From a virus (lineage: Duplodnaviria > Heunggongvirae > Uroviricota > Caudoviricetes), in the IMG/VR virus record IMGVR_UViG_2778261588_000008, positions 1 to 32,849 of that record: a stretch of 32,849 nt of DNA; one strand, 5' to 3'. The first letter of the stretch is position 1. Each line of letters begins with the position of its first letter. Below the pieces are notes generated by a model, which did no database searches, was not told where the DNA came from, and saw only the letters and a program-made list of their open reading frames with translations. Shown here in pieces: positions 1 through 17,927 of this stretch. The position numbers and the translations under genes were made by a program.

Positions 1-1314
1 CTAACTTACTGATTTTAATAGATCTCTTGTGTCACTTTGGTGACTATGGGACATCATTGGGACATAATCTGCCAGCTTCTGATTCAGCATGGCGATCTGT
101 TCTGCATTGCTGTCAGTCATCCATGCTCCGTATACATTGAACACCATCTGGGCACTTGCATGGCCCATCTGGCTGGCAATGAAGCTTGGATTTGCTCCGG
201 CAGATAATGACCAGCACGCATAAGTGTGTCGTGACTGGTATGCCTTTCGATACCTGATGCCAGCACGCTTAATGGCTGTTTCCCATGAGTCGCCAATGGA
301 ATCTACCTTGTAGATAAAACCTACCTGTTTGCTTTTTCTAACCACCTGGGGGTTAAATACGAAAGTACATTCATGATTCACTGAACGTCCATATTCACGT
401 AGTTGCACCTTGATGTGGTGCTGCTTACCCAGTCTTGTCATTTCAGCCTGATTTTTCAGGACACTGATAGCGGGCTGGATAAGATGCACAACCCTGTTTG
501 TACTTGCTTCAGTTTTAGGTAGAGTGAACTCACCGAGTTTCGTATAATTGCGCCTGATAGTAATTGTTCCTGCTTTCAGATCGATATCTTCCCAGGCCAG
601 GGAGACCAGTTCACCATGACGCATTCCTGTGTACACAGCCAATGACCACAGGTTTTTTGTCTGCTGATGCCGGCAAGCATCTATCAGGCGAATAAATTCG
701 TCACGAGTTAGCGGATCTGGCTCTGCCCTGGCTTTTTTAAGAGGCTTAATTCTCTCGAAGGGATTTGCTTCTAAGTAACCGTGATCTGCAGCAAACTGGA
801 ACATTCCAGCGATTGTCGTCATGTAATAATTTACTGTGACAACGCTTCGTCCTTTTACTCGAGCTTTACCTTTTGTTGGATTTTGGTATCCGGTCAGCAA
901 ATCTTTCCTGATATACAGCAATTCCTCTTTGGTCACCGTTGACACCAGTCTGCTACCTCCAATTTTCGGAACCATCGTTCTTGCAACGGATTTATAGCGA
1001 TTGAATGCATTTGCAGAGATTTCCATGCGTTTCAGATCCAGCCACTTTTCTTCAAGTTCTTTCACCGTAATTTCTTTTTTATTTACCCCAAAAGCCTTGA
1101 GGTTAGGAGAGTCAGGGAACTGCGCAGCATAATCAAAGTTTCCTGTACGAATGGCAAAACATACAGATGTCCGCAGCTCTCCGGCGATCTTCCTGTTCTT
1201 GACAGTGTCAGGGACACCAAGATTTTCCCTGACACGTTTACCTTTAAAATTAAACCAGATGCGTAATGTGCCGCCGTGGTTTTCGACGCCTGTTGGATAT
1301 TTGACTTTATCCAT
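1..1314 (-). CDS. int: phage integrase, tyrosine recombinase (lambdoid / Rac IntR-like)
   Basis: 437-aa ORF, ATG at 1314 with GGAGG SD 5 nt upstream, TAG stop at 1-3. N-terminus PTGVE..IRIWF.FKGKR resembles lambdoid/Rac integrases; C-terminal half has tyrosine-recombinase layout (R..HxxR..Y). Excisionase-like gene directly upstream on same strand. Confidence 0.9.
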   Translation of the reverse strand: MDKVKYPTGVENHGGTLRIWFNFKGKRVRENLGVPDTVKNRKIAGELRTSVCFAIRTGNFDYAAQFPDSPNLKAFGVNKKEITVKELEEKWLDLKRMEISANAFNRYKSVARTMVPKIGGSRLVSTVTKEELLYIRKDLLTGYQNPTKGKARVKGRSVVTVNYYMTTIAGMFQFAADHGYLEANPFERIKPLKKARAEPDPLTRDEFIRLIDACRHQQTKNLWSLAVYTGMRHGELVSLAWEDIDLKAGTITIRRNYTKLGEFTLPKTEASTNRVVHLIQPAISVLKNQAEMTRLGKQHHIKVQLREYGRSVNHECTFVFNPQVVRKSKQVGFIYKVDSIGDSWETAIKRAGIRYRKAYQSRHTYACWSLSAGANPSFIASQMGHASAQMVFNVYGAWMTDSNAEQIAMLNQKLADYVPMMSHSHQSDTRDLLKSVS

Positions 1315-2038: not shown

Positions 2039-2410
2039 TCAGAGCCGTATGTTTGTAGCGGGTTCAATACTGATAATTTCTGCTGAGATAAGCATCCCGG
2101 CAAGCCAGAGTTCTCCGGACAGGTCTTCATCCTGACATATCAGTTCGCCAATATTAATGGTGGCCATGATATCTGTTTCCCCTGTGCGCTCATCCTTGAC
2201 TTCTTCATAAGGCAGCGTTGCGTACAGGCTTTCAATAGCGCAACTGATAACATCCAGTCCGGTCAGATTGCCGCCGACAGTAACTTCGAATGTTTCGCGG
2301 TATTCCCATAGTCCGAAAGTTAATCGAACGGTTTGGTTTGCCATGCGTCCGCATGACGTCAGATTCGGGTCATAGTTCATTATTTGCGGTTGAGTATTCT
2401 GGGTGTTCAT
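2039..2410 (-). CDS. hypothetical protein (123 aa)
   Basis: ORF 2039-2485 trimmed to the ATG (MNTQNTQ) with AAGGGA SD at 7-nt spacing; avoids overlap with upstream SPFH gene; preceded by a 7-bp GC hairpin (2417-2435). Confidence 0.5.
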   Translation of the reverse strand: MNTQNTQPQIMNYDPNLTSCGRMANQTVRLTFGLWEYRETFEVTVGGNLTGLDVISCAIESLYATLPYEEVKDERTGETDIMATINIGELICQDEDLSGELWLAGMLISAEIISIEPATNIRL

Positions 2411-2450
2411 CTGCATTTCCCTTAGCCCGGCGGCCTGCCGGGCATATAAG

Positions 2451-3278
2451 TTATTTAATCTGGATAAATGGTGTATTGGCACCACTGGTCATGTATTGCG
2501 GCAGTGTACCGTTCCACTTGTTGATGGCTTCCAGCTCCATGACGCCTGGGTTCTGGCGTAGAGCTTCGCCGCGTAAACGAATGGCATCGGCTTCTGCCTG
2601 GGCTTTTGTTCGAATGGCATCAGCCTGTCCGGCAGCTTCCGCACGTAGCATGTTGGCCTCCGCTTCACGTTGCTTGACTTCCTGCTCGCGCTGCAGGGTT
2701 TTCTGGTTTGCCGTGACTTTGGCGTTAATGCTGTCGATAACGGTTGGAGGGTATTCCGGTTTACCTACATAAGAGAGGCTCATTACCTGAATGCCGATGG
2801 GTGTCATCTCTTCCTGAATGTCTTTAAGTGCGGCATCCAGTAGTTCAGACTTGCCACCGTCGATAAATTTGTCAGTGGTCATTTTGCTGGCCAGCCGATT
2901 GAGTGCGTCGGCAATTTTCTGGCGCAGGTCAGTGTCGGTAATGTCATCCACGCCTTTGCGGTAGGTCTGAAACACCGTGGTAACTTTGGATGGATCAACT
3001 TTGTAGGCCACACCGATGTGATAGCCGATGGTTGTACCGTCACTCATCTGGAAACTGAACGGTTCATCGTAGGTCTTCATTTGTTTGAAGGTGGGGAAGA
3101 TATAAACTTCAGTATTCCAGCCAGTCCAGTAGCGACCAACACCGACCACCTCACCGACACCTTTGTCGTCGCCTAGTTTATTTACCTTGATGCCAACATT
3201 ACCTGGTTCAACGCGATCGCAACCGACAAGGCCAATAGTCGGCAGAACAATGGCTAAAGCAAAAATAATTTTTTTCAT
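2451..3278 (-). CDS. SPFH/band-7 (stomatin/prohibitin/HflK-C-like) lipoprotein
   Basis: 275 aa; N-terminal signal with lipobox LVGC; central SPFH-like region followed by Ala/Glu/Arg/Gln-rich coiled coil (REQEVKQREAEANMLRAEAAGQADAIRTKAQAEADAIRLRGEA) typical of band-7 proteins; SD AAGGA 7 nt before ATG; start overlaps stop of upstream small membrane ORF. Confidence 0.8.
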   Translation of the reverse strand: MKKIIFALAIVLPTIGLVGCDRVEPGNVGIKVNKLGDDKGVGEVVGVGRYWTGWNTEVYIFPTFKQMKTYDEPFSFQMSDGTTIGYHIGVAYKVDPSKVTTVFQTYRKGVDDITDTDLRQKIADALNRLASKMTTDKFIDGGKSELLDAALKDIQEEMTPIGIQVMSLSYVGKPEYPPTVIDSINAKVTANQKTLQREQEVKQREAEANMLRAEAAGQADAIRTKAQAEADAIRLRGEALRQNPGVMELEAINKWNGTLPQYMTSGANTPFIQIK

Positions 3279-3463
3279 CTTTTATCCTTAGTGAAAGAAA
3301 GACCCTTGTAAATGGCATAAATGCAGGGCGGGGTCAGAAACGCCAGTGCAAAGCCAGAAATAACTGCTATCGTATCCTTCATGGATATAAGGAACGGAAC
3401 GAATAATCCGTAAATGCATGCGATAATTGCCAGTAAAATTACTATTTTGAAATACAGTCTCAT
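3275..3463 (-). CDS. small membrane protein (62 aa, 2 predicted TM helices)
   Basis: Hydrophobic ORF; stop overlaps start of the SPFH gene (ATGA-type coupling), as in SPFH + small membrane partner pairs. Confidence 0.55.
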   Translation of the reverse strand: MRLYFKIVILLAIIACIYGLFVPFLISMKDTIAVISGFALAFLTPPCIYAIYKGLSFTKDKR

Positions 3464-3486
3464 TGGTCTGTGGTATCCCGATATTT

Positions 3487-3594
3487 TTAACCGACTGACA
3501 GCGCAATAAAGAGAATAATGATTTCAGTTAGTGTCAGCACTGTGGCAAGGATTAAAATCAGTTTTACTCTGTTTAATTCACGGTTGCTTTTCAT
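3487..3594 (-). CDS. possible membrane micro-protein (35 aa)
   Basis: Hand-translated MKSNRELNRVKLILILATVLTLTEIIILFIALSVG; single predicted TM helix; no convincing SD, so low confidence. Confidence 0.25.
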   Translation of the reverse strand: MKSNRELNRVKLILILATVLTLTEIIILFIALSVG

Positions 3595-3639
3595 ATAAAC
3601 GGTTAGTAAAAAATGGAAGAATTATAGTCTTCTTAATAT

Positions 3640-4221
3640 TTAATGTGTCACTGGCGCTTCTGGCATACCATGAGTATTCAGGTCGTTAATCATTTCATCC
3701 AGAAGGAGTTCAAGCCCTTCGCGCCCCATAGCAGAGAGAATGAAACCATTATCAGGATCTGCGATGAGCATTTTTTGATAGAGAAACAGAACTCGCCCCA
3801 TGCCTTCAGTTTCGCCATATTTTTCAATAAATCCCCATTCGACATGGTTTTGCAGGGCAATGCGAAGTGGTCCTGGGTATATACTCATGCAACCATGTTT
3901 CCCCTTATAAATAACTGCGCGATCTGTCGTCCCGTTATCGTTAGGGATATCAATAGTGCCGTTCTTGTTTTCCTCTTCACTGATAAACGTTGCCACATAC
4001 AGCCAGCGCCATTGAGCAACCTTCATATCGACTGAAAATCTTCCCAGGAATCTGGCATCATCGGCTTCAGCAATACATTGCATGATTCTTAAGCCGTGCC
4101 AGTATGGATTGTCGTATTCACCATCATTAAGTCGCTGTACGGCCTCAACATAATCAATGGTTGTATTGTCAATTTTTATGCCATGAGCTGTCGCTTCTGG
4201 TTTGAATTCAAAATTGTTCAT
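3640..4221 (-). CDS. hypothetical protein (193 aa)
   Basis: ORF 3640-4296 trimmed to ATG at 4221 (MNNFEFK) with AAGGAA SD; start overlaps stop of upstream 62-aa ORF. No recognisable motif. Confidence 0.6.
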   Translation of the reverse strand: MNNFEFKPEATAHGIKIDNTTIDYVEAVQRLNDGEYDNPYWHGLRIMQCIAEADDARFLGRFSVDMKVAQWRWLYVATFISEEENKNGTIDIPNDNGTTDRAVIYKGKHGCMSIYPGPLRIALQNHVEWGFIEKYGETEGMGRVLFLYQKMLIADPDNGFILSAMGREGLELLLDEMINDLNTHGMPEAPVTH

Positions 4222-4406
4222 AATGTTTGTTCCTTTGCTGGTGGAATAATCGTGTAACCCGCTCTTTTTGCCATCCACAGAAATGTATCCATGCAACCAA
4301 CGAATTCATTATCCAACAGATGTTTTGAGTAAATTACTTCACCATTTTCAATGGTTAGCAACACTCTTACTTTTTTATGTGTTATGTTCTGTTGTTTTTC
4401 TTTCAT
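4218..4406 (-). CDS. hypothetical protein (62 aa)
   Basis: ATG at 4406 with GGGAGA SD 7 nt upstream; translationally coupled to the 193-aa gene. Confidence 0.5.
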   Translation of the reverse strand: MKEKQQNITHKKVRVLLTIENGEVIYSKHLLDNEFVGCMDTFLWMAKRAGYTIIPPAKEQTL

Positions 4407-4610
4407 TTATTTATCTCCCATATGCTTTGCGCAAATACAGGTTGGCTATATGAAGATAAGAATCTCCATGTTGTGCAATGAGGCAGGCAGTTTTATACGA
4501 TGCCTTATTTTTCAGGAAAGCCATAACATAATCTCCTGCGAATAAAGGTTGCAACAATCCCCGGCGATAAAACCGTAATAAACATTCAGTGAATATTTAT
4601 TGTTATTGCG

Positions 4611-4802
4611 CTAATTCTTTTTGACTGCAGCTTTCGAATATTCACATGCAAAAGACAGGATTTCATCACCTAATGTTTTTGCATTCTGATTATTTGACAT
4701 CTGTAAAACTTGCGCAGCGCACAACAGACTATGAATGTTTATTGCAAATGAATCCGATGCCAGACAAATACCTTCGAAATTGTCATGGATATTACTATTC
4801 AC
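4611..4802 (-). CDS. small protein, stand-alone paralog of the N-terminal domain of the upstream HTH protein
   Basis: 63-aa ORF with GTG start at 4802 and AAGGAG SD 8 nt upstream that overlaps the stop of the 150-aa gene. Shares DSFA(L/I)NI..LL.A......K.LG.E...F..EY..AA with residues ~25-75 of the 150-aa protein. Confidence 0.5.
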   Translation of the reverse strand: MNSNIHDNFEGICLASDSFAINIHSLLCAAQVLQMSNNQNAKTLGDEILSFACEYSKAAVKKN

Positions 4803-4807
4803 TGCTG

Positions 4808-5260
4808 TTACTCCTTTGCAGCATTGCTACCAGTCAATAACCACATCGGATCGCAGCCAAGAATATTTGCCAGTGGGATAAGCATACTGATGGTTGGTTC
4901 ATACTCTCCGCTCTCCCACTGGATGATGATTTCTTCATCAAGAGCGAGCAGCCTGGCGAGTTCGGCTGTTGTTAAGCCGCAGGCTTCGCGTTGGGTGCGA
5001 AGGTTAACCAGCCAGCTTTCAGGGAAGGATTGTTTTTGTTGTGCAGGAGAAGCAGCAGATAGAGCATATTCATGGATAAATTCCATTACCTCAATGCCCA
5101 GTTCCTTTGAGCGAGCACAATCCAGAAGATGGAATGTGCGTACAGCACTTAGCAAATTTGCAATATTTAATGCAAAGGAATCAAGTTCTAAGCCCTTAAG
5201 CGTAACACAGCCGCAGTTGATAAAATTAGTTGTTTCTGGAGTTGCTTTTAGTGTCTTCAT
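4808..5260 (-). CDS. XRE-family HTH DNA-binding protein with N-terminal accessory domain
   Basis: 150 aa; C-terminal HTH_XRE-like segment (GLTTAELARLLALDEEIIIQWESGEYEPTISMLIPLANILG); first gene downstream of a strong leftward promoter; SD GGTGGA. Confidence 0.7.
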   Translation of the reverse strand: MKTLKATPETTNFINCGCVTLKGLELDSFALNIANLLSAVRTFHLLDCARSKELGIEVMEFIHEYALSAASPAQQKQSFPESWLVNLRTQREACGLTTAELARLLALDEEIIIQWESGEYEPTISMLIPLANILGCDPMWLLTGSNAAKE

Positions 5261-5313
5261 ATATCCACCAACAATTTTAAATTGAATTAAATCAAGTTAT
5301 AATTGATGGTGCG

Positions 5314-5342
5314 ATATTATGCTTTGGGAAATAGGCTGTCAA
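5314..5342 (-). promoter_or_regulatory. leftward early promoter (PL analog): TTGACA - 17 bp - TAATAT
   Basis: On minus strand: -35 TTGACA (5342-5337), 17-nt spacer, -10 TAATAT (5319-5314). A 17-bp near-palindrome ATCAAGTTATAATTGAT (5291-5307) sits at the predicted transcription start and is a candidate OL operator. Confidence 0.55.
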
Positions 5343-5372
5343 GAAAAAATTGATATCGTATATTTCAGGCAG

Positions 5373-5392
5373 AAAAAAACGGGCAAAGCCCG
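5373..5392 (-). terminator. intrinsic terminator downstream of cI
   Basis: On minus strand CGGGC-TTT-GCCCG hairpin followed by T7, 14 nt after the cI stop codon. Confidence 0.7.
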
Positions 5393-5405
5393 TTAAAATC
5401 AAAGA

Positions 5406-6095
5406 CTAACCAAATCTGTTTATGTTGAATGGTACTGATGAGATCACTTTAGACTGGATATAAAGCAGAGCTAACCCCTCTTTTTCGATGCTCCATGGTT
5501 GATAATTGGGGTTATCAGATAACACCATGATTTTGCTTCCAATTTTTTGAAGCCTTTTCACGTAGCATTCTCCATCAAAACAAAATGCATAAATACCATC
5601 GCCATCAAAATAAGTTACTGTCTTATCAAGAAAAAGAAGGTCGCCAGGTGAGATTGTGGGAGCCATACTGTCTCCTCTGGCGTTACCTATTTCTATATTT
5701 TTGAATGCCCGATTTCCAACAAGACGTCGGGCATATTCAGGATCAAGTTCTATTGAGCGCACTACATCTATCAAGTCACCACGGACATGAGTTCCATCAC
5801 CGCAACTAAACTCAACATCAAGGACATTAAACACGACGCTATCTGTTCTTGTCTGGTGTTTCTCTTGCGAGGAAAAGGTTGGTGAGGAGTCTTCACCTAA
5901 GAACCAGGATTGTGGATAACCGCTAATCTCTGATAAATGCGCGAGCTTATCACTCCGTGGAAATGTTTTTCCTGTTGTCCAGTACTGCACTGATTGCGCA
6001 CTCACACCTAACTTGCGGGCCAGTTGAGCCTGAGTCCATCCTTTTGCTTTCAGCATCGCGGCTATTCGATTTTCCGTGTTTTTGACGTTCTTCAT
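5406..6095 (-). CDS. cI: CI-type prophage repressor (N-terminal HTH + C-terminal S24/LexA-like autopeptidase)
   Basis: 229 aa; N-terminal HTH (GWTQAQLARKLGVSAQSVQYW); C-terminal G-D-S-M (Ser nucleophile) and downstream Lys in YVKRL, as in lambda CI/LexA; divergent from cro-like gene. Confidence 0.9.
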   Translation of the reverse strand: MKNVKNTENRIAAMLKAKGWTQAQLARKLGVSAQSVQYWTTGKTFPRSDKLAHLSEISGYPQSWFLGEDSSPTFSSQEKHQTRTDSVVFNVLDVEFSCGDGTHVRGDLIDVVRSIELDPEYARRLVGNRAFKNIEIGNARGDSMAPTISPGDLLFLDKTVTYFDGDGIYAFCFDGECYVKRLQKIGSKIMVLSDNPNYQPWSIEKEGLALLYIQSKVISSVPFNINRFG

Positions 6096-6228
6096 GACCA
6101 GGTCCTGTGGGTTTCTTTACAAGGATAAATCTTTACTTGATTTTAGTGTATTCGATCCTTTTGCAACTTGCATGTTAATTTAATCTTGATGTATTCTTGT
6201 GTTATCAAGTTAATATTGGTGTTTTGCT
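6096..6228. promoter_or_regulatory. divergent immunity control region (OR / PRM / PR analog)
   Basis: 133-bp intergenic region between divergent cI and cro. Repeated half-site CTTGAT/ATCAAG (6136-6141, 6185-6190, 6204-6209); 17-mer ATCAAGTTAATATTGGT (6204-6220) matches the OL 17-mer at 13/17; candidate PR TTGCAT-18-TATTCT. Confidence 0.5.
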
Positions 6229-6528
6229 ATGAAAGGAAATGATTACGACGTACTTCGCGCATTAATTGCGCAAAATGCCATTGCACGAAACCTTGGTGTA
6301 ACTCCGCAAGCGGTGAATCAGTGGTTTTCAAAAAACACAATTCCTGCTCGTTTTGTTTTACGCGTATGTGAAGTAGTTGCATGGAAGGTCACGCCACATG
6401 GCTTAAGGCCAGATCTTTATCCTCACCCTGAAGATGGAATTCCTGATTCGTTACGCAAAATTTCAAATCCAAGCCTAGCGCGCACGGAAGATGGGCAGAG
6501 TGATTCATCAGAAATGTCCACGCGATGA
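6229..6528 (+). CDS. cro: Cro-like HTH regulator (YdaS/Cro family)
   Basis: 99 aa; HTH with GVTPQAVNQW signature of Cro/YdaS-type proteins; divergently arranged with cI. Weak SD, short leader. Confidence 0.7.
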   Translation: MKGNDYDVLRALIAQNAIARNLGVTPQAVNQWFSKNTIPARFVLRVCEVVAWKVTPHGLRPDLYPHPEDGIPDSLRKISNPSLARTEDGQSDSSEMSTR

Positions 6529-6604
6529 ACGGTTACTGAACGAAAAAAGAAAAGCCGGGCCGCACTCCGTCAGCCCGACTTATTCTGATTAGTAAGGGGA
6601 TTTC

Positions 6605-7459
6605 ATGATGATCAATAAACAAAAAATAGTCAACCCTGAAAACTTGCCAGTTATTGAGTGGCAGGGAGTACGTGTAGTTACCACCGAAACGTTGGCGGCG
6701 GGATATGGAACAACGCCAATCCGTATACAACAGAACTACATTCGAAACGAAGATCGTTTCGTTGAGGGTAAACACTTTTTCAAAATCAGCGGTGATGAGC
6801 TGAAATCTTTCCGACTATCTTTTAGCGAGTCGGTTAATAAACATACAACATCACTTGTCCTCTGGACAGAACGCGGCGCTGCCCGCATGTCAAAAATCGT
6901 CGATACAGACGAGGCCTGGTCGTTCTTCGAAAAAATGGAGCAGGCGTATTTTCGTAAAGCAACGCCTTCTTCAAACACTATTCCAGACTTTGACGATCCG
7001 ATCGCTGCTGCTGAAGCGTGGATTGAAGCCAAAAAATCCGAACGCCTTGCTCTCGGGTATGCAGAGCGTCAGGCTCGCTACATCAGCAAACTCGAAAGCC
7101 ATCTCGCCGATGGCATCACTCCTGTGCAGTTCTGCAAACAACTCAACGGTGTAAACACTCGTCAGATTAATGCGTTCCTTGAAGAGCGTAACTGGCTGTA
7201 TGACGACCGTCCGGAGGCTATGTATCCGCGCTGGCGTGTAAAAGCGTATGCACGTGACCAATACCTGACTGAGCGTTCTGGGCAGGTTGAGCAGGAAAAC
7301 GGGGAAATGCGCGAGATTTTCAAACCACTCCTGAAGAAAAAAGGTGCCGCCTGGTTATATCGCCATTATCTGAACGGTGAACTACCGATGAAGAAAACAT
7401 GGGATGGGCTGTTTACCCATAACACTGAGCTCGCGAATCTTTTACAGGAGAACAAATAA
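6605..7459 (+). CDS. phage antirepressor-like protein (ORF6N-type N-terminal domain)
   Basis: 284 aa; AAGGGG SD; N-terminal VVTTETLAAGYGTTPIRIQQNYIRNEDRFVEGKHFFKISGDEL resembles ORF6N/antirepressor DNA-binding domains; C-terminal domain unassigned. Confidence 0.6.
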   Translation: MMINKQKIVNPENLPVIEWQGVRVVTTETLAAGYGTTPIRIQQNYIRNEDRFVEGKHFFKISGDELKSFRLSFSESVNKHTTSLVLWTERGAARMSKIVDTDEAWSFFEKMEQAYFRKATPSSNTIPDFDDPIAAAEAWIEAKKSERLALGYAERQARYISKLESHLADGITPVQFCKQLNGVNTRQINAFLEERNWLYDDRPEAMYPRWRVKAYARDQYLTERSGQVEQENGEMREIFKPLLKKKGAAWLYRHYLNGELPMKKTWDGLFTHNTELANLLQENK

Positions 7460-12561: not shown

Positions 12562-13446
12562 TTATATTGGGCGCTTTGAATTCGATTTAAAGCGTCTTCC
12601 ACTTATTCCAGAAACCCAAATGTCTTCCTCAAGAAAGTCAAGAAGGGCTTTTATTTCTTTTTTTGATGAAGGCATGACAATTTTCTCAACACCACCAACT
12701 ATTATGGTTTGTAAGGGGAATTTAACTTTAGCAGCTTCGGATTTAAACTTTGACATATTTGGGAGTGTTAGCATCCCAGTCTGATTTATTAGTGTTACTT
12801 TATTTCTTATCACTGTATCTGCAACGGATTTTAGATCAAAACCTTGGGGAGTAGAAAATACACTAAGTTGACTAAATGCATTAAGTTCTTGGTCAGTAGC
12901 AGCAGAAAAATAGGACGACATGTCAAAAATACTTCTTAGATTAAAGAAACTCTTAAATCGTATTGTATCATTGATAATTATTGCAACTAGTTTATCATCA
13001 ACATTAAAACCGATGCTATTAGCTTTACTAAAGGTAGTTTTGCTTGCACAAAGCTTTCCAAAGAATGATTTTGAGGTATCTAAGATTTGTTTTTTGTTGA
13101 AAGTTTGTAGTGCAATAATATTGGGGTTTGCTGGCGCGTCAACACCAACAAATAATGCTTTAATATAACCAATATCAATTTGGCTAGGATCCCAGATAGG
13201 CACGGCGGTAGGCCTATTGACTGCGTCAATCAGGCGTGCAGAATCAGTAAAGTTTTGTATTTCAAAACACTCACTATGTTTTGGTGTATAACCGGCATAG
13301 AATGGTATCATATTGTTATGATGACTTTCAAAATATTGACGCTGTTGTTGGAAAATGGCCGTAACAGAAGTACTTGCTGTTGCATCAAGTTCGACTCTAA
13401 CAATTCTCGTTGCAATTGTATTATCTATTACTGCAAAAAGTGCCAT
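12562..13446 (-). CDS. hypothetical protein (294 aa), second gene of counter-oriented AT-rich cassette
   Basis: ATG at 13446 with AAAGGA SD; 6 nt downstream of the membrane-protein stop; visibly AT-rich codon usage unlike flanking phage genes; no catalytic motif recognised. Confidence 0.7.
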   Translation of the reverse strand: MALFAVIDNTIATRIVRVELDATASTSVTAIFQQQRQYFESHHNNMIPFYAGYTPKHSECFEIQNFTDSARLIDAVNRPTAVPIWDPSQIDIGYIKALFVGVDAPANPNIIALQTFNKKQILDTSKSFFGKLCASKTTFSKANSIGFNVDDKLVAIIINDTIRFKSFFNLRSIFDMSSYFSAATDQELNAFSQLSVFSTPQGFDLKSVADTVIRNKVTLINQTGMLTLPNMSKFKSEAAKVKFPLQTIIVGGVEKIVMPSSKKEIKALLDFLEEDIWVSGISGRRFKSNSKRPI

Positions 13447-13451
13447 GGTTA

Positions 13452-13970
13452 TTATCCTTTAACATGTAGAAATGTGTAGTCTGTTAATTGAATAACTGTA
13501 AATTTGATATCTTTAATATCAGTAATGACTGATTTAGAAATCAATACAAAACCTACGCCGGTGTCATCTTCAGCTTCGTAAAATTTATAACCGATAAGTG
13601 ACAATACTGGGTTAAAGTTATAGTTCTCGGAAAAGCTGATGTAAAATAACAATGACAAATAAAAGAATAACGCATATGCTTTATTTTCAGCAATAGAATC
13701 TGTTCCTAGGAGAGGGAATAAATAGCTTAAGAAATAATTAGTTACTTCTTTGTTAGCGGGAGAAACTGAACTAATATTTTTTGTCAGAGGTTCAAGTTGT
13801 TTCTCAGCATATTGAATCAGGCCTATTGCTAATAACCAACTTGCTATGCCAACGCATAAGCTATATTGCATCAGCCAAACCGTATCTTTTACATATCCAA
13901 TAAAAAATAGAGTTGCGCAAACAGGTGCAATTGAGCTGGCTGTTAATAATAAGCGTGCTAATTTGTTCAT
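13452..13970 (-). CDS. integral membrane protein (~4 TM helices), first gene of counter-oriented cassette
   Basis: 172-173 aa (two adjacent ATGs, AAAGGA SD); four hydrophobic segments then a ~60-aa soluble C-terminus; AT-rich. Confidence 0.7.
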   Translation of the reverse strand: MNKLARLLLTASSIAPVCATLFFIGYVKDTVWLMQYSLCVGIASWLLAIGLIQYAEKQLEPLTKNISSVSPANKEVTNYFLSYLFPLLGTDSIAENKAYALFFYLSLLFYISFSENYNFNPVLSLIGYKFYEAEDDTGVGFVLISKSVITDIKDIKFTVIQLTDYTFLHVKG

Positions 13971-14135
13971 CATGATATCCTTTGTACTGTTTATGCATAC
14001 AGCACTTTACATCATGTACTCCAAAGTATCTATCTTGTGAAGAATCTTACACTAAATACTACAGAAAAGTTAACGCGTACGCAAAAAGTATTATATCGTG
14101 TTAAGAGTGGTTACTTCGCCACACAGCTTAAACCC

Positions 14136-14626: not shown

Positions 14627-15673
14627 ATGGCTAATACTGTAAAAATATCCAGTTGTGAGTTAATCAACGCTGATTGCCTGAAATTTATCCGGACCTTACC
14701 GGAAAACTCTGTCGATCTGATAGTCACAGACCCGCCATACTTTAAAGTGAAGCCCGAGGGCTGGGATAACCAGTGGAAGGGCGATGATGATTACCTGCAA
14801 TGGCTGGACCAGTGTCTGGCTCAGTTCTGGCGGGTATTAAAACCTGCCGGAAGTCTTTACCTGTTCTGTGGTCATCGCCTGGCATCTGACACCGAACTCA
14901 TGATGCGTGAACGTTTTAATGTGCTGAACCACATTATCTGGGCGAAGCCGTCCGGACGCTGGAATGGGTGCAACAAGGAAAGCCTGCGGGCGTATTTCCC
15001 GGCAACAGAGCGCATTCTGTTTGCCGAACATTATCAGGGGCCATATCAGCCAAAAAATGACGGCTATGCGGCAAAAGGGCGCGAGCTTAAGCAGCACGTA
15101 ATGGCCCCGCTGATTTCTTACTTCCGTGATGCGCGTGAATCACTGGGGATAACGTCAAAACAGATAGCTGAAGCCACCGGAAAGAAAAACATGGCTTCGC
15201 ACTGGTTTGGTACCAGTCAGTGGCAGTTACCGAATGAGGCCGATTACAGTAAACTACAGGCGCTGTTTGCACGTGTGGCGGCAGAAAAACACCAGCGCGG
15301 TGAACTGGAGCAGCCACACCACCAGCTGGTCAGCACATACAGCGAACTGAACCGGCAATATGCCAGCCTGCTGGAGGAATACAAATCACTGCGGCGTTAT
15401 TTTTCCGTATCGGCTGTTGTTCCTTATACGGATGTCTGGACGCACAAGCCCGTGCAGTTTTATCCGGGTAAGCATCCCTGTGAAAAACCGGCGGATATGT
15501 TGCGTCAGATAATTACTGCCAGCAGCCGTCCAGGCGATTTGGTCGCAGATTTTTTTATGGGGTCGGGGTCGACAATAAAAGCGGCACTGTCGCTGGGACG
15601 CAGGGCGATTGGCGTGGAACTGGAAGAGGAACGTTTTAATCAGACGGCCAGAGAAATAACGAAAGATTTTTAA
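14627..15673 (+). CDS. orphan DNA N6-adenine methyltransferase (beta-class, N6_N4 MTase family)
   Basis: 348 aa; motif IV DPPY near N-terminus (LIVTDPPYF) and AdoMet motif I F.GSGST near C-terminus (FFMGSGSTI): circularly permuted beta-class order; no adjacent restriction endonuclease gene. Confidence 0.85.
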   Translation: MANTVKISSCELINADCLKFIRTLPENSVDLIVTDPPYFKVKPEGWDNQWKGDDDYLQWLDQCLAQFWRVLKPAGSLYLFCGHRLASDTELMMRERFNVLNHIIWAKPSGRWNGCNKESLRAYFPATERILFAEHYQGPYQPKNDGYAAKGRELKQHVMAPLISYFRDARESLGITSKQIAEATGKKNMASHWFGTSQWQLPNEADYSKLQALFARVAAEKHQRGELEQPHHQLVSTYSELNRQYASLLEEYKSLRRYFSVSAVVPYTDVWTHKPVQFYPGKHPCEKPADMLRQIITASSRPGDLVADFFMGSGSTIKAALSLGRRAIGVELEEERFNQTAREITKDF

Positions 15674-15890: not shown

Positions 15891-15965
<75 letters not shown>

Positions 15966-16719: not shown

Positions 16720-17112
16720 ATGTCTGAACCCTTGTCCGGTTCCGGCACGGCTGCGGCGCTCGGCGGGGCGACGGTATTCGGGCTGTTTACTGGAACGGAT
16801 TTCGGGATTGTGTTTGGTGCGTTCGCCGGGGCGTTGTTTGTGGCAACGATGCCGCAGAAGATTTCAGCCTGGCGTGTGGCGGCACATTTTCTGGTGTCGT
16901 TCATTGTTGGTGTACTGGGGGCGCGTGTACTGTCAGCCTGGATTGCATCAAAAACAGGTTATGACGGTACATCTGCGGATGCACTGTGTGCGGTGCTGGT
17001 GGCGGTGGTGTCGGTGAAGACTCTGTCGTTCATCCACCAGCAGGATATCGCATCACTGGTGTCCGGCCTGTTCTCGCGCCTGCGGGGCGGAGGAGGCGGC
17101 AATGTTAAGTAA
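16720..17112 (+). CDS. putative holin (multi-TM membrane protein)
   Basis: 130 aa; AGGAG SD; 3-4 Gly/Ala-rich hydrophobic helices, charged C-terminus; first gene of cluster ending in endolysin. Confidence 0.55.
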   Translation: MSEPLSGSGTAAALGGATVFGLFTGTDFGIVFGAFAGALFVATMPQKISAWRVAAHFLVSFIVGVLGARVLSAWIASKTGYDGTSADALCAVLVAVVSVKTLSFIHQQDIASLVSGLFSRLRGGGGGNVK

Positions 17113-17380
17113 CCTTCCCGGATTGCTGAATGTGGCGTTATGCACGGTTACCGTGCTGACGCTCTTTTTTTATCGTCGCCGTGATTCCAGACATAAACCG
17201 CTGATGTCATGGCTGGCCTGGCTGCTGATGCTGCTGTATGCCTTTGCGCCCCTCAGCTATCTGTGTGGTCGCCCGTTAGCGGCGAACTGGCTGGCGGTGG
17301 GGCTTAATTTGCTGTTCTGCGTGCTGGTGATTCGCGCACGCGGGAACGTTTCAAAAATCCTTGTATTACGAAGGCGCTGA
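17102..17380 (+). CDS. putative second holin / antiholin-like membrane protein
   Basis: 92 aa; 3 hydrophobic segments, basic C-terminus; overlaps upstream gene end and abuts endolysin start. Confidence 0.5.
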   Translation: MLSNLPGLLNVALCTVTVLTLFFYRRRDSRHKPLMSWLAWLLMLLYAFAPLSYLCGRPLAANWLAVGLNLLFCVLVIRARGNVSKILVLRRR

Positions 17381-17381
17381 T

Positions 17382-17927
17382 ATGAAGTCGAAAGATGAAA
17401 TTTTTGACGAAATTCTGGGAAAAGAGGGCGGTTACGTCAATCACCCGGATGATAAAGGTGGTCCGACTAAATGGGGCATCACTGAAAAAGTTGCCCGTGC
17501 ACACGGTTATCAGGGCGATATGCGTGACCTGACGCGTGGGCAGGCGCTGGAAATACTCGAGGCGGATTACTGGTTCGGGCCACGTTTTGACCAGGTCGCC
17601 GCATTATCCCCTGATATTGCCGCAGAGTTGTGTGATACCGGTGTGAATATGGGGCCGTCCGTAGCATCGAAAATGCTCCAACGCTGGCTGAACGTTTTCA
17701 ACCTGCAAGGCAAATTGTTCCCGGATATGGACGCAGACGGGCGTATCGGCCCCCGCACGATTAACGCACTACGGACTTATCTGCAAAAACGCGGCAAAGA
17801 CGGCGAACTGGTGATGCTGAAGGCGCTGAATTGCACGCAGGGCGACCGCTATCTGGGGCTGGCAGAAAAACGCGAGGCCAACGAGTCGTTTGTCTACGGC
17901 TGGATGAAAGAGCGCGTAGCAGTTTAA
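17382..17927 (+). CDS. endolysin, GH108-type muramidase with C-terminal peptidoglycan-binding domain
   Basis: 181 aa from ATG 17382 (ORF-track start 17361 is TTG); N-terminal EGGYVNHPDDKGGPTKWGIT matches GH108 signature; C-terminal region resembles PG_binding_3. Confidence 0.85.
   Translation: MKSKDEIFDEILGKEGGYVNHPDDKGGPTKWGITEKVARAHGYQGDMRDLTRGQALEILEADYWFGPRFDQVAALSPDIAAELCDTGVNMGPSVASKMLQRWLNVFNLQGKLFPDMDADGRIGPRTINALRTYLQKRGKDGELVMLKALNCTQGDRYLGLAEKREANESFVYGWMKERVAV

Follow-up and report, generated by a model that had tools for sequence, protein, structure and literature searches.

The virus record IMGVR_UViG_2778261588_000008, analysed here over its positions 1 to 32,849 (henceforth the window, 32,849 nucleotides in length), is a phiP27-like Escherichia coli prophage with its integrase gene at the start (1..1314, minus strand). 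We found that it carries a mobile accessory cassette made up of two phage genes, in which a gene for a 275-amino-acid SPFH/Band-7 lipoprotein (2451..3278, minus strand) is coupled to a gene for a 62-amino-acid partner (3275..3463, minus strand) predicted to form two helices in the inner membrane. The lipoprotein gene, a homologue of phiP27 L05, is already present in databases and is an ordinary, catalogued member of the PHROG 200 family; the partner represents a genuine conserved family (PHROG 1130) that is often unannotated. Considering the domains that we detected together with the behaviour of every structurally solved full-length SPFH protein, we put the probability at roughly 70% that the lipoprotein is anchored in the inner membrane facing the periplasm, forms a ring or cage and docks the two-helix protein (taken together as a single structural reading).

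Few membrane scaffolds are as widespread as SPFH proteins, of which HflK/C, prohibitin, erlin, stomatin, flotillin and QmcA have recently been solved as cages; how their clients are determined is still under debate. Phages appear to keep a minimal version of such a scaffold, namely a lipid-anchored protein plus a two-helix partner of 60-70 amino acids. Recognising this partner turns a vague annotation into a testable two-component system, with E. coli and its N4, P2-like and phiP27-like phages as the material at hand.

An SPFH lipoprotein coupled to a small membrane protein

Scanning the minus strand for open reading frames (ORFs) returned three at this locus, 2451..3278 (275 amino acids), 3275..3463 (62 amino acids) and 3487..3594 (35 amino acids), just as an earlier note made from the letters of the sequence had laid them out. 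That note had also proposed an SPFH-like core for the first of them, and this was borne out by a hidden Markov model (HMM) search, in which the 275-amino-acid protein scored 108.3 bits with Pfam Band_7 (PF01145; cut-off 23.6 bits, E=6.1e-31), the match extending over profile positions 2-176 of 176. The protein was further matched by PHROG 200 (named ‘lipoprotein’; E=1e-114), and shares 98.9% identity with phiP27 L05 and 92.8% with the protein of phage P88. The Pfam envelope covers residues 22-208 (2655..3215, minus strand), modelled by AlphaFold2 as a beta-rich SPFH1 and an alpha/beta SPFH2 part. In the monomer model, with a predicted local distance difference test score (pLDDT) of 79, this SPFH core is followed by a single helix of 65 residues (178-242; 2553..2747, minus strand), rich in Ala, Glu and Gln, which corresponds to the coiled-coil wall element of SPFH cages, could be aligned with the coiled coil of HflK and agrees with the long coiled coil of the earlier note. 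Using Foldseek, we matched the model with a probability of 1.0 to solved chains of HflK/C, prohibitin, erlin, stomatin, flotillin and QmcA (PDB 8z5g being among the matches); E-values were around 1e-13 for HflC/HflK, prohibitin, erlin and stomatin over 240-300 aligned columns, and no subfamily was preferred. Finally, the C-terminal tail (2454..2552, minus strand; A-I-N-K-W-N-G-x-L-P ... P-F) is conserved, with K254, W255, G257, P260, P270 and F271 invariant in an alignment of nine homologues, and is likely to serve as an oligomer or cap interface.

Among solved structures in the PDB, HflK was the best match at the sequence level (E=2e-4). Orthology with HflK or HflC is ruled out by the cut-offs of the NCBIfam equivalogs, as the HflC model (TIGR01932) scored 25.5 bits against a cut-off of 134.4 and the HflK model (TIGR01933) 23.4 bits against 159.4. 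The phage protein resembles E. coli HflK/HflC at family level only, sharing the SPFH domain, the long coiled coil and the predicted position on the periplasmic face, but differs in its predicted lipid anchor at Cys20 (with a cleavable lipoprotein signal instead of the N-terminal transmembrane anchor of the HflK/HflC type), in its single SPFH gene (no second SPFH ORF that would complete a K/C-type pair was found among the ORFs examined in the window) and in its separate 62-amino-acid partner. We also consider the label ‘serine protease’, which is frequent in GenBank records of the family, to be unsupported: SPFH was the sole domain detected, and the only match with a protease name was a weak PHROG hit on the coiled coil.

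The lipoprotein signal, which the earlier note had called from its LVGC lipobox, can be read directly from the N terminus of the protein, MKKIIFALAIVLPTIGLVGC-DR (3219..3278, minus strand). It comprises a positively charged n-region (MKK), a hydrophobic core and the lipobox L-V-G-C, with Cys20 as the residue predicted to bear the lipid and Asp at position +2. This cysteine was invariant in the alignment of nine homologues from unrelated phages, and a lipobox (defined as [LVI][ASTVI][GAS]C) was present in 123 of 138 enterobacterial homologues. In these 123 proteins the +2 residue was D in 101, Y in 17, E in 4 and W in 1. In E. coli, Asp and aromatic residues at +2 are reported as Lol-avoidance residues, i.e., residues which cause retention in the inner membrane. 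We therefore predict that the SPFH lipoprotein is retained there, facing the periplasm.

The 62-amino-acid ORF ends within the start of the SPFH gene, with an ATGA shared between the stop of the former and the start of the latter, and the SPFH gene has a good Shine-Dalgarno sequence (AAGGA); translational coupling to a protein with two transmembrane segments, as had been suggested for this pair, is supported by the overlap. Hydropathy revealed two hydrophobic segments in the partner, and a predicted model placed helices at residues 2-26 and 28-61. Given that positive charges are found at both ends of the protein (R2 and K6; K53, K58, K60 and R61), the positive-inside rule suggests that both termini are probably cytoplasmic and that the short loop between the helices is periplasmic. 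This loop carries the family motif P-x-L-(I/V)-S-x-x-(D/N)-(T/S), and in close relatives P23 and L25-I-S-M-K-D-T31 are invariant. PHROG 1130 (named ‘membrane protein’ and placed in the category ‘moron, auxiliary metabolic gene and host takeover’) matched the partner with E=1.1e-23, while no match was obtained in Pfam (E<=0.1, holin families included), NCBIfam or PADLOC. When 1.84 billion cluster representatives were searched with a profile of the partner, 89 clusters (at 50% identity) were recovered, all of them 36-91 amino acids long.

These lengths bear on the idea, raised in the earlier note, that the partner might be NfeD-like. We had to abandon this idea, as there was no Pfam match and the proteins in all clusters are too short to accommodate the C-terminal NfeD domain with its oligonucleotide-binding (OB) fold, or any other fused domain. 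The cassette is comparable to SPFH-NfeD operons (QmcA-YbbJ, YqiK-YqiJ and archaeal stomatin with STOPP) in that the gene for an SPFH protein is paired with one for a small membrane protein, but differs from them in that the phage partner has no NfeD domain or OB-fold. QmcA and YbbJ assemble into one complex; QmcA faces the cytoplasm, whereas the phage SPFH protein is predicted to be exported. Compared with the characterised SPFH systems, the phage cassette is a distinct variant, with a predicted lipid anchor, a two-helix partner other than NfeD and carriage by phages.

Distribution and mobility of the cassette

A tblastn search with the SPFH protein detected relatives in 741 of 50,697 phage records, and many of these phages are virulent. 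Among the carriers were strictly virulent groups, namely N4-like Schitoviridae, Vequintavirinae and Kayvirus, as well as jumbo and Lak phages, crAss-like phages and tailed viruses of haloarchaea. The partner gene lies directly upstream of the SPFH gene in the majority of the varied lineages that we inspected, typically with an overlap of 4-20 nucleotides. Specifically, the overlap is 4 nucleotides both in the P2-like phage P88 (gp11/gp12) and in a second phiP27-like prophage with other flanks, and a P1-like phage-plasmid encodes an unannotated partner ORF of 78 amino acids. A partner is likewise found upstream of SPFH in the Schitoviridae Erwinia phage S6, N4 (isolate VEc25; gp19 upstream of gp20, i.e., the same family in the same pairing) and Xanthomonas phage PB119, in Seunavirus KE22 (with one small ORF in between), in Pseudomonas phage Ostro and in Burkholderia phage vB_E173; the partner-family HMM matched these upstream ORFs with E-values from 1e-30 to 1e-3. 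Viral contigs were scanned as well: the first scan returned near-identical loci only and served the analysis of the 35-amino-acid ORF (see below), and additional scans started from homologues of Pseudomonas and crAss-like phages. The partner HMM matched an ORF ending at the SPFH start in 66 of 67 Pseudomonas-type contigs, and in 71 of 78 crAss-like contigs it matched the upstream ORF, which mostly overlapped the SPFH start. The crAss-like partners (60-75 amino acids) have the loop L-I-S-A-P-N-T-I-E-N-V-I-G-F, and in Bacteroides phage PhiCrAssBcn2 an unannotated homologue with two transmembrane segments precedes the SPFH gene (L095:1284-1499).

Not all lineages follow this arrangement, as the partner is absent from some of the deeper branches. 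Salmonella phage PMBT37 has no membrane ORF upstream of its SPFH gene, Caulobacter phage CcrBL10 has an upstream ORF with three transmembrane segments in place of the partner, and the haloarchaeal virus Hardygib1 has an ORF with a single such segment downstream of SPFH. In Kayvirus, the upstream position is taken by MbpV, an unrelated protein with a single transmembrane segment, and its SPFH protein MbpS has an N-terminal transmembrane anchor instead of a lipobox. The combination of SPFH with some small membrane protein is thus general, and the PHROG 1130-type partner covers phages of Pseudomonadota and Bacteroidota.

In E. coli, the cassette or its core was present in 364 of 5,426 complete genomes (approximately 7%). 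The surroundings in our window are closely matched elsewhere, with 95% identity to phage phiP27 and several phages converting for Shiga toxin 2 (Stx2) over positions 2300-3800, and 99.9% identity over positions 2400-3660 to a prophage adjoining mlrA in E. coli UTAK-5. The pair itself does not differ substantively from phiP27 L05 or P88 gp12 and gp11, each with its small membrane partner upstream, and is another copy of them. A search for the same module in other prophages, as the earlier note had suggested, recovered the two genes with different flanks in P88, in the second phiP27-like prophage and in the P1-like phage-plasmid. Moreover, the match to some phiP27-like prophages is confined to the flanking DUF5406 region, and a prophage of E. 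coli TD225-C4 has a partly deleted and frameshifted SPFH gene, with a 59-amino-acid ORF annotated at the position of the partner (L092:3053-3562). Together, the different flanks, the decayed copy and the prophages with flanks only indicate that the cassette is dispensable and horizontally exchanged. We counted 27 E. coli copies on plasmids, of which the one inspected was the P1-like phage-plasmid (L005; E. coli O22:H8, 92,972 bp). There, the cassette lies among tRNA-Ile, Ser, Thr and Asn genes (3704..7168) and adjoins a gene annotated as ‘Thoeris anti-defense Tad2 family protein’, in a region which looks like an accessory or counter-defence island.

Mobility among prophages is a property which the cassette shares with defence genes. 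In one scenario, the partner would be a dormant pore-former that the SPFH cage restrains until a trigger (e.g., a competing phage) sets it free, as in exclusion of the RexAB type. Such an abortive or toxic module would be consistent with the tight coupling of a small hydrophobic protein to a scaffold, and the presence of a Kiwa system in the same prophage (described below) shows that cargo of this kind is collected. It would nonetheless be difficult to reconcile with the lack of a PADLOC match, with the placement of the cassette, which lies co-directionally within early lytic operons rather than being separately transcribed like Kiwa, and with its carriage by virulent phages, which hardly squares with altruistic suicide. 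In addition, the TD225-C4 prophage has kept the partner beside a broken SPFH gene, meaning that the partner alone is probably not lethal. We thus consider this scenario improbable.

Phage SPFH domains have been noted before, in passages on the T4-like phages RB43, 44RR and Aeh1 (PMC1524935), Kayvirus MbpS (PMC7150955), Burkholderia CSP3 (PMC10269572), a Pseudomonas satellite prophage (PMC4936722), a Schitoviridae phage (PMC13239085) and a genus of Crassvirales (bioRxiv 10.64898/2026.08.21.746148), and a gene table of the Vi01-like phage PhiSH19 lists an SPFH gene beside a 106-amino-acid ‘superinfection exclusion protein’ (PMC3220722). These passages speculate about an HflK/C-like control of lysogeny, Sec-dependent export and adsorption, and do not mention the conserved two-helix partner. 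The involvement of FtsH is a recurrent speculation, raised for other phages in several of these papers.

In this scenario, which was also the main idea of the earlier note, the SPFH protein would mimic or join the HflK/C cage of the host from the periplasmic side and alter the access of FtsH to the CII-like regulator, Xis or host proteins, with the outcome that the lysis-lysogeny decision is biased or phage proteins are spared degradation. The predicted position of the lipoprotein, on the membrane face where HflK/C also lies, is in keeping with this, as are HflK being the best solved-structure match, HflC and HflK being the top NCBIfam matches, the first gene of the leftward operon matching a PHROG ‘CII-like regulator’ and the same idea having been raised for other phages in the passages cited. 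The NCBIfam scores, however, fall far short of the HflK and HflC cut-offs, Foldseek places prohibitin and erlin level with HflK/C, and the 275-amino-acid protein has no N-terminal transmembrane helix. Furthermore, strictly virulent phages and crAss-like phages, for which no choice between lysis and lysogeny arises, commonly carry the cassette; given that N4, Erwinia phage S6, Vequintavirinae and crAss-like contigs carry it, lysogeny control cannot be the general job of the family. We consider modulation of FtsH unlikely, and lambda-style control of CII through FtsH to be less likely than protection of the envelope. If it were true, FtsH action would provide a viral handle on a central protease.

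Eukaryotic stomatins regulate channels, and a further possibility is that the SPFH scaffold restrains a holin-like partner or the true holin and thereby tunes the timing of permeabilisation. The architecture of the partner (two transmembrane segments, N-in/C-in, charged C terminus) is that of a class II holin, and SPFH genes are found next to lysis genes in some phages: in Kayvirus, mbpV and mbpS are flanked by the endolysin gene lysK and by tgl, with holA nearby according to the passage on that phage (PMC7150955), and in PhiCrAssBcn2 an ORF with multiple transmembrane segments and a peptidoglycan hydrolase gene come after the SPFH gene. On the other hand, the lysis cassette of the window (two holins and a GH108 endolysin; 16720..17927) lies approximately 14 kb away in another transcription unit, and the pair is found among early genes elsewhere (in P88 within the cox-to-A operon, in N4 just after the RNAP2 genes). 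As the partner also lacks a match to any Pfam family, holins included, we rejected its identification as a class II holin in spite of the fitting architecture, and we doubt that lysis timing is what the pair is for, the odds being long.

The leftward transcription unit

The earlier note had assigned the pair to a leftward early operon. That it belongs to a leftward unit proximal to int is supported by the annotation, as the minus strand carries all genes from position 5260 down to int; that this unit is an early one under repressor control is reasonable but not proven. A promoter scan identified a pL-like site (TTGACA-17-TAATAT; 5342..5314, minus strand), directly preceded by a clean terminator of the repressor gene (5394..5378), and an operator-like palindrome of 17 bp, ATCAAGTTATAATTGAT, lies just downstream of the site (5291-5307) and occurs a second time between the cI and cro genes (6204-6220). 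These two genes, both to the right of the cassette, are an S24-peptidase (cI-like) repressor gene (5406..6095) and a Cro-like gene that runs in the opposite direction (6229..6528). No minus-strand terminator was found by the scan between the pL-like site and int, and we consider it probable that this site is the origin of the leftward transcript which includes the cassette. The first gene of the unit encodes a CII-like protein with a helix-turn-helix (4808..5260, minus strand; PHROG 4836 ‘CII-like regulator’, E=8e-77). It lies to the left of the repressor gene, whereas its counterpart in lambda lies to the right.

Upstream of the cassette itself, the scan found no promoter on the minus strand, nor any flanking terminator-like site. 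A candidate picked by eye upstream of the 35-amino-acid ORF (GTGACA-19-TATAAT) was discarded for its overly long spacer. Right after the SPFH stop codon there is a GC-rich hairpin (2421..2450, minus strand; fold energy -17.1 kcal/mol, z=-1.6), which travels with the cassette, as homology to a differently flanked copy (L004) reaches to approximately position 2424 of the window. We rejected this hairpin as a terminator because it has no T-run, its z-score is only -1.6 and the terminator scan did not call it.

The absence of promoter-like and terminator-like sites around the pair bears on whether it could be a lysogenic-conversion gene set, i.e., a Bor- or Lom-like surface lipoprotein expressed in the lysogen for the benefit of the host (e.g., envelope stress tolerance or serum resistance). 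Lysogenic conversion would account for a lipoprotein in prophages of pathogenic E. coli, Stx phages included, and for the PHROG category of the partner, which contains morons. It would also call for features which run counter to those observed: the scan detected no promoter-like site of its own strand upstream of the pair and no flanking terminator-like site, the cassette is widespread in virulent phages, and the +2 residues indicate the inner membrane and not the surface. Of all the explanations considered here, we find this one the hardest to believe.

We also assessed the 35-amino-acid ORF (3487..3594, minus strand), which had been put forward as a possible third, transmembrane member of the module. 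The ORF exists and contains one hydrophobic segment, but its membership did not hold up. Homology of the cassette in other contexts stops at approximately position 3468 of the window, just upstream of the 62-amino-acid start, and no gene resembling the 35-amino-acid ORF was present among the annotated genes adjoining the pair in P88, N4 and S6; given its absence from other contexts of the cassette, we rejected it as a third component. The ORF was open in 35 of 36 distinct phiP27-like variants, which are themselves only a few percent diverged, with a ratio of nonsynonymous to synonymous substitution rates (dN/dS) of about 0.5 and with 10, 4 and 10 variable sites at the three codon positions. 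It has no Shine-Dalgarno sequence, was not called by the Prokaryotic Genome Annotation Pipeline (PGAP) and had no match in Pfam, PHROG or PADLOC, nor did the region have one in Rfam. It is thus context-specific, and its coding status is unproven. Two weak antisense promoter-like sites lie within it (3495..3558, plus strand; 9/12 matches each), and would suit a type I toxin paired with an antisense RNA. This idea gained no support from Rfam, and antisense sites of this kind were no commoner here than in shuffled sequence.

A possible role at the envelope and other genes of the prophage

Phage proteins that act on the envelope early in infection to exclude superinfecting phages are known from temperate and virulent phages alike, including the lipoproteins Llp of T5, Cor of phi80 and N15 and Ltp of TP-J34, as well as Imm and Sp of T4. 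The structural reading given at the outset would suggest the following mechanism. The 62-amino-acid protein would insert as a helical hairpin into the inner membrane, with both ends cytoplasmic and the loop P-x-L-I-S-x-x-D-T periplasmic. The SPFH protein, translated by coupling at the ATGA, would be exported and lipid-modified at Cys20, and Asp at +2 would retain it in the inner membrane, so that its SPFH domain would come to lie flat on the periplasmic face, on the side where HflK/C is found. Oligomerisation through the long helix and the C-terminal tail would then produce a closed ring or cage fencing off a patch of membrane, as expected from every structurally solved full-length SPFH protein. 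The partner, made in approximately equal amounts, might dock by its periplasmic loop and thereby supply the transmembrane anchor or adaptor that HflK/C have in cis. Given a repressor-controlled leftward early unit, the cassette would be made after infection or induction and not in a quiet lysogen.

As to what such an assembly would do, we favour a function in lytic growth at the level of the envelope, because the carriers are both virulent and temperate, the genes have an early placement and the protein is predicted to be exported. It would protect the infected cell, most plausibly by blocking superinfecting phages at an inner-membrane step or, alternatively, by stabilising the membrane during infection. 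Exclusion at the membrane, the alternative offered in the earlier note, is in better agreement with the distribution of the cassette than lysogeny control, although no known defence model matches it. There is also a weak association with exclusion genes. In the N4 isolate VEc25, the gene just upstream of the pair (vec25_18; L087:1407-1721) matches Pfam PF17420 ‘Superinfection exclusion gene product 17’ (E=1e-55), and the PhiSH19 gene table mentioned above shows a comparable neighbour. The likeness to Llp, Cor, Ltp, Imm and Sp would be one of function only, as these are small monomeric blockers and not SPFH scaffolds; we detected no relation in sequence or fold to exclusion proteins, and neither protein of the pair matched a PHROG superinfection-exclusion family or PADLOC. 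The structure and the exclusion or protection role taken together are tentative, and we would give them somewhat worse than even odds. If exclusion or tuning of lysis were true, it would matter for phage-therapy cocktails and for prophage competition in strains producing Shiga toxin.

Several observations weigh against this interpretation. At the structural level, the last 30 residues of the SPFH protein were modelled with low confidence in the monomer (pLDDT 42-54), although a conserved tail with such low values is as expected of a segment which becomes ordered only in an oligomer, and the model of the partner had a pLDDT of only 67. The +2 residue is Y or E, and not Asp, in N4, S6 and KE22, so that inner-membrane retention is not proven for the family as a whole. 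With regard to expression, the promoter scan gave 6 promoter-like sites compared to a mean of 11.7 in shuffled sequence, and the pL assignment consequently rests on position and on the shared palindrome; dependence on a repressed pL would furthermore leave lysogens unprotected, unlike in the case of classical prophage exclusion genes. With regard to function, a search of PADLOC-DB v2 (E<=0.1) returned no match for the SPFH, 62-amino-acid and 35-amino-acid proteins or for three flanking proteins, a full-text literature search retrieved only speculation and no experiment on any phage SPFH protein, and the location of SPFH beside lysis genes in Kayvirus and crAss-like phages points to another role. 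The PADLOC search had a positive control in the KwaA and KwaB proteins of the same window, which matched strongly, and on this basis we rejected the cassette as a known defence system.

A bolder interpretation, to which we give slightly less credence still, is that the cassette represents an ancient, phage-specific envelope machine, i.e., a self-contained, periplasm-facing cage with an anchor encoded in trans, which would range from crAss-like phages of Bacteroides through N4 to E. coli prophages and would take over a patch of the inner membrane early in infection, for instance to shut out the DNA of competing phages or to time the failure of the membrane. If this were true, the cassette would stand for a widespread, unrecognised class of takeover or exclusion systems, and for the first SPFH system with a client set by a virus.

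Elsewhere in the window, the prophage carries a complete Kiwa system (12562..13973, minus strand). KwaA is encoded by an ORF of 173 amino acids (13452..13973; PADLOC E=1.9e-83) and KwaB by one of 294 amino acids (12562..13446; PADLOC E=3.9e-148, with a further match to Pfam KwaB). The strand of this system is opposite to that of the surrounding replication and late genes, as in a moron expressed in the lysogen. A gene at 14627..15673 (plus strand) encodes a DNA methyltransferase resembling those of type II (E=1e-43 with Pfam N6_N4_Mtase and E=1.9e-152 with PADLOC MTase_II), for which no restriction partner was recognised among the ORFs checked; a tRNA-Gly (TCC) gene comes after it at 15891..15965 (plus strand).

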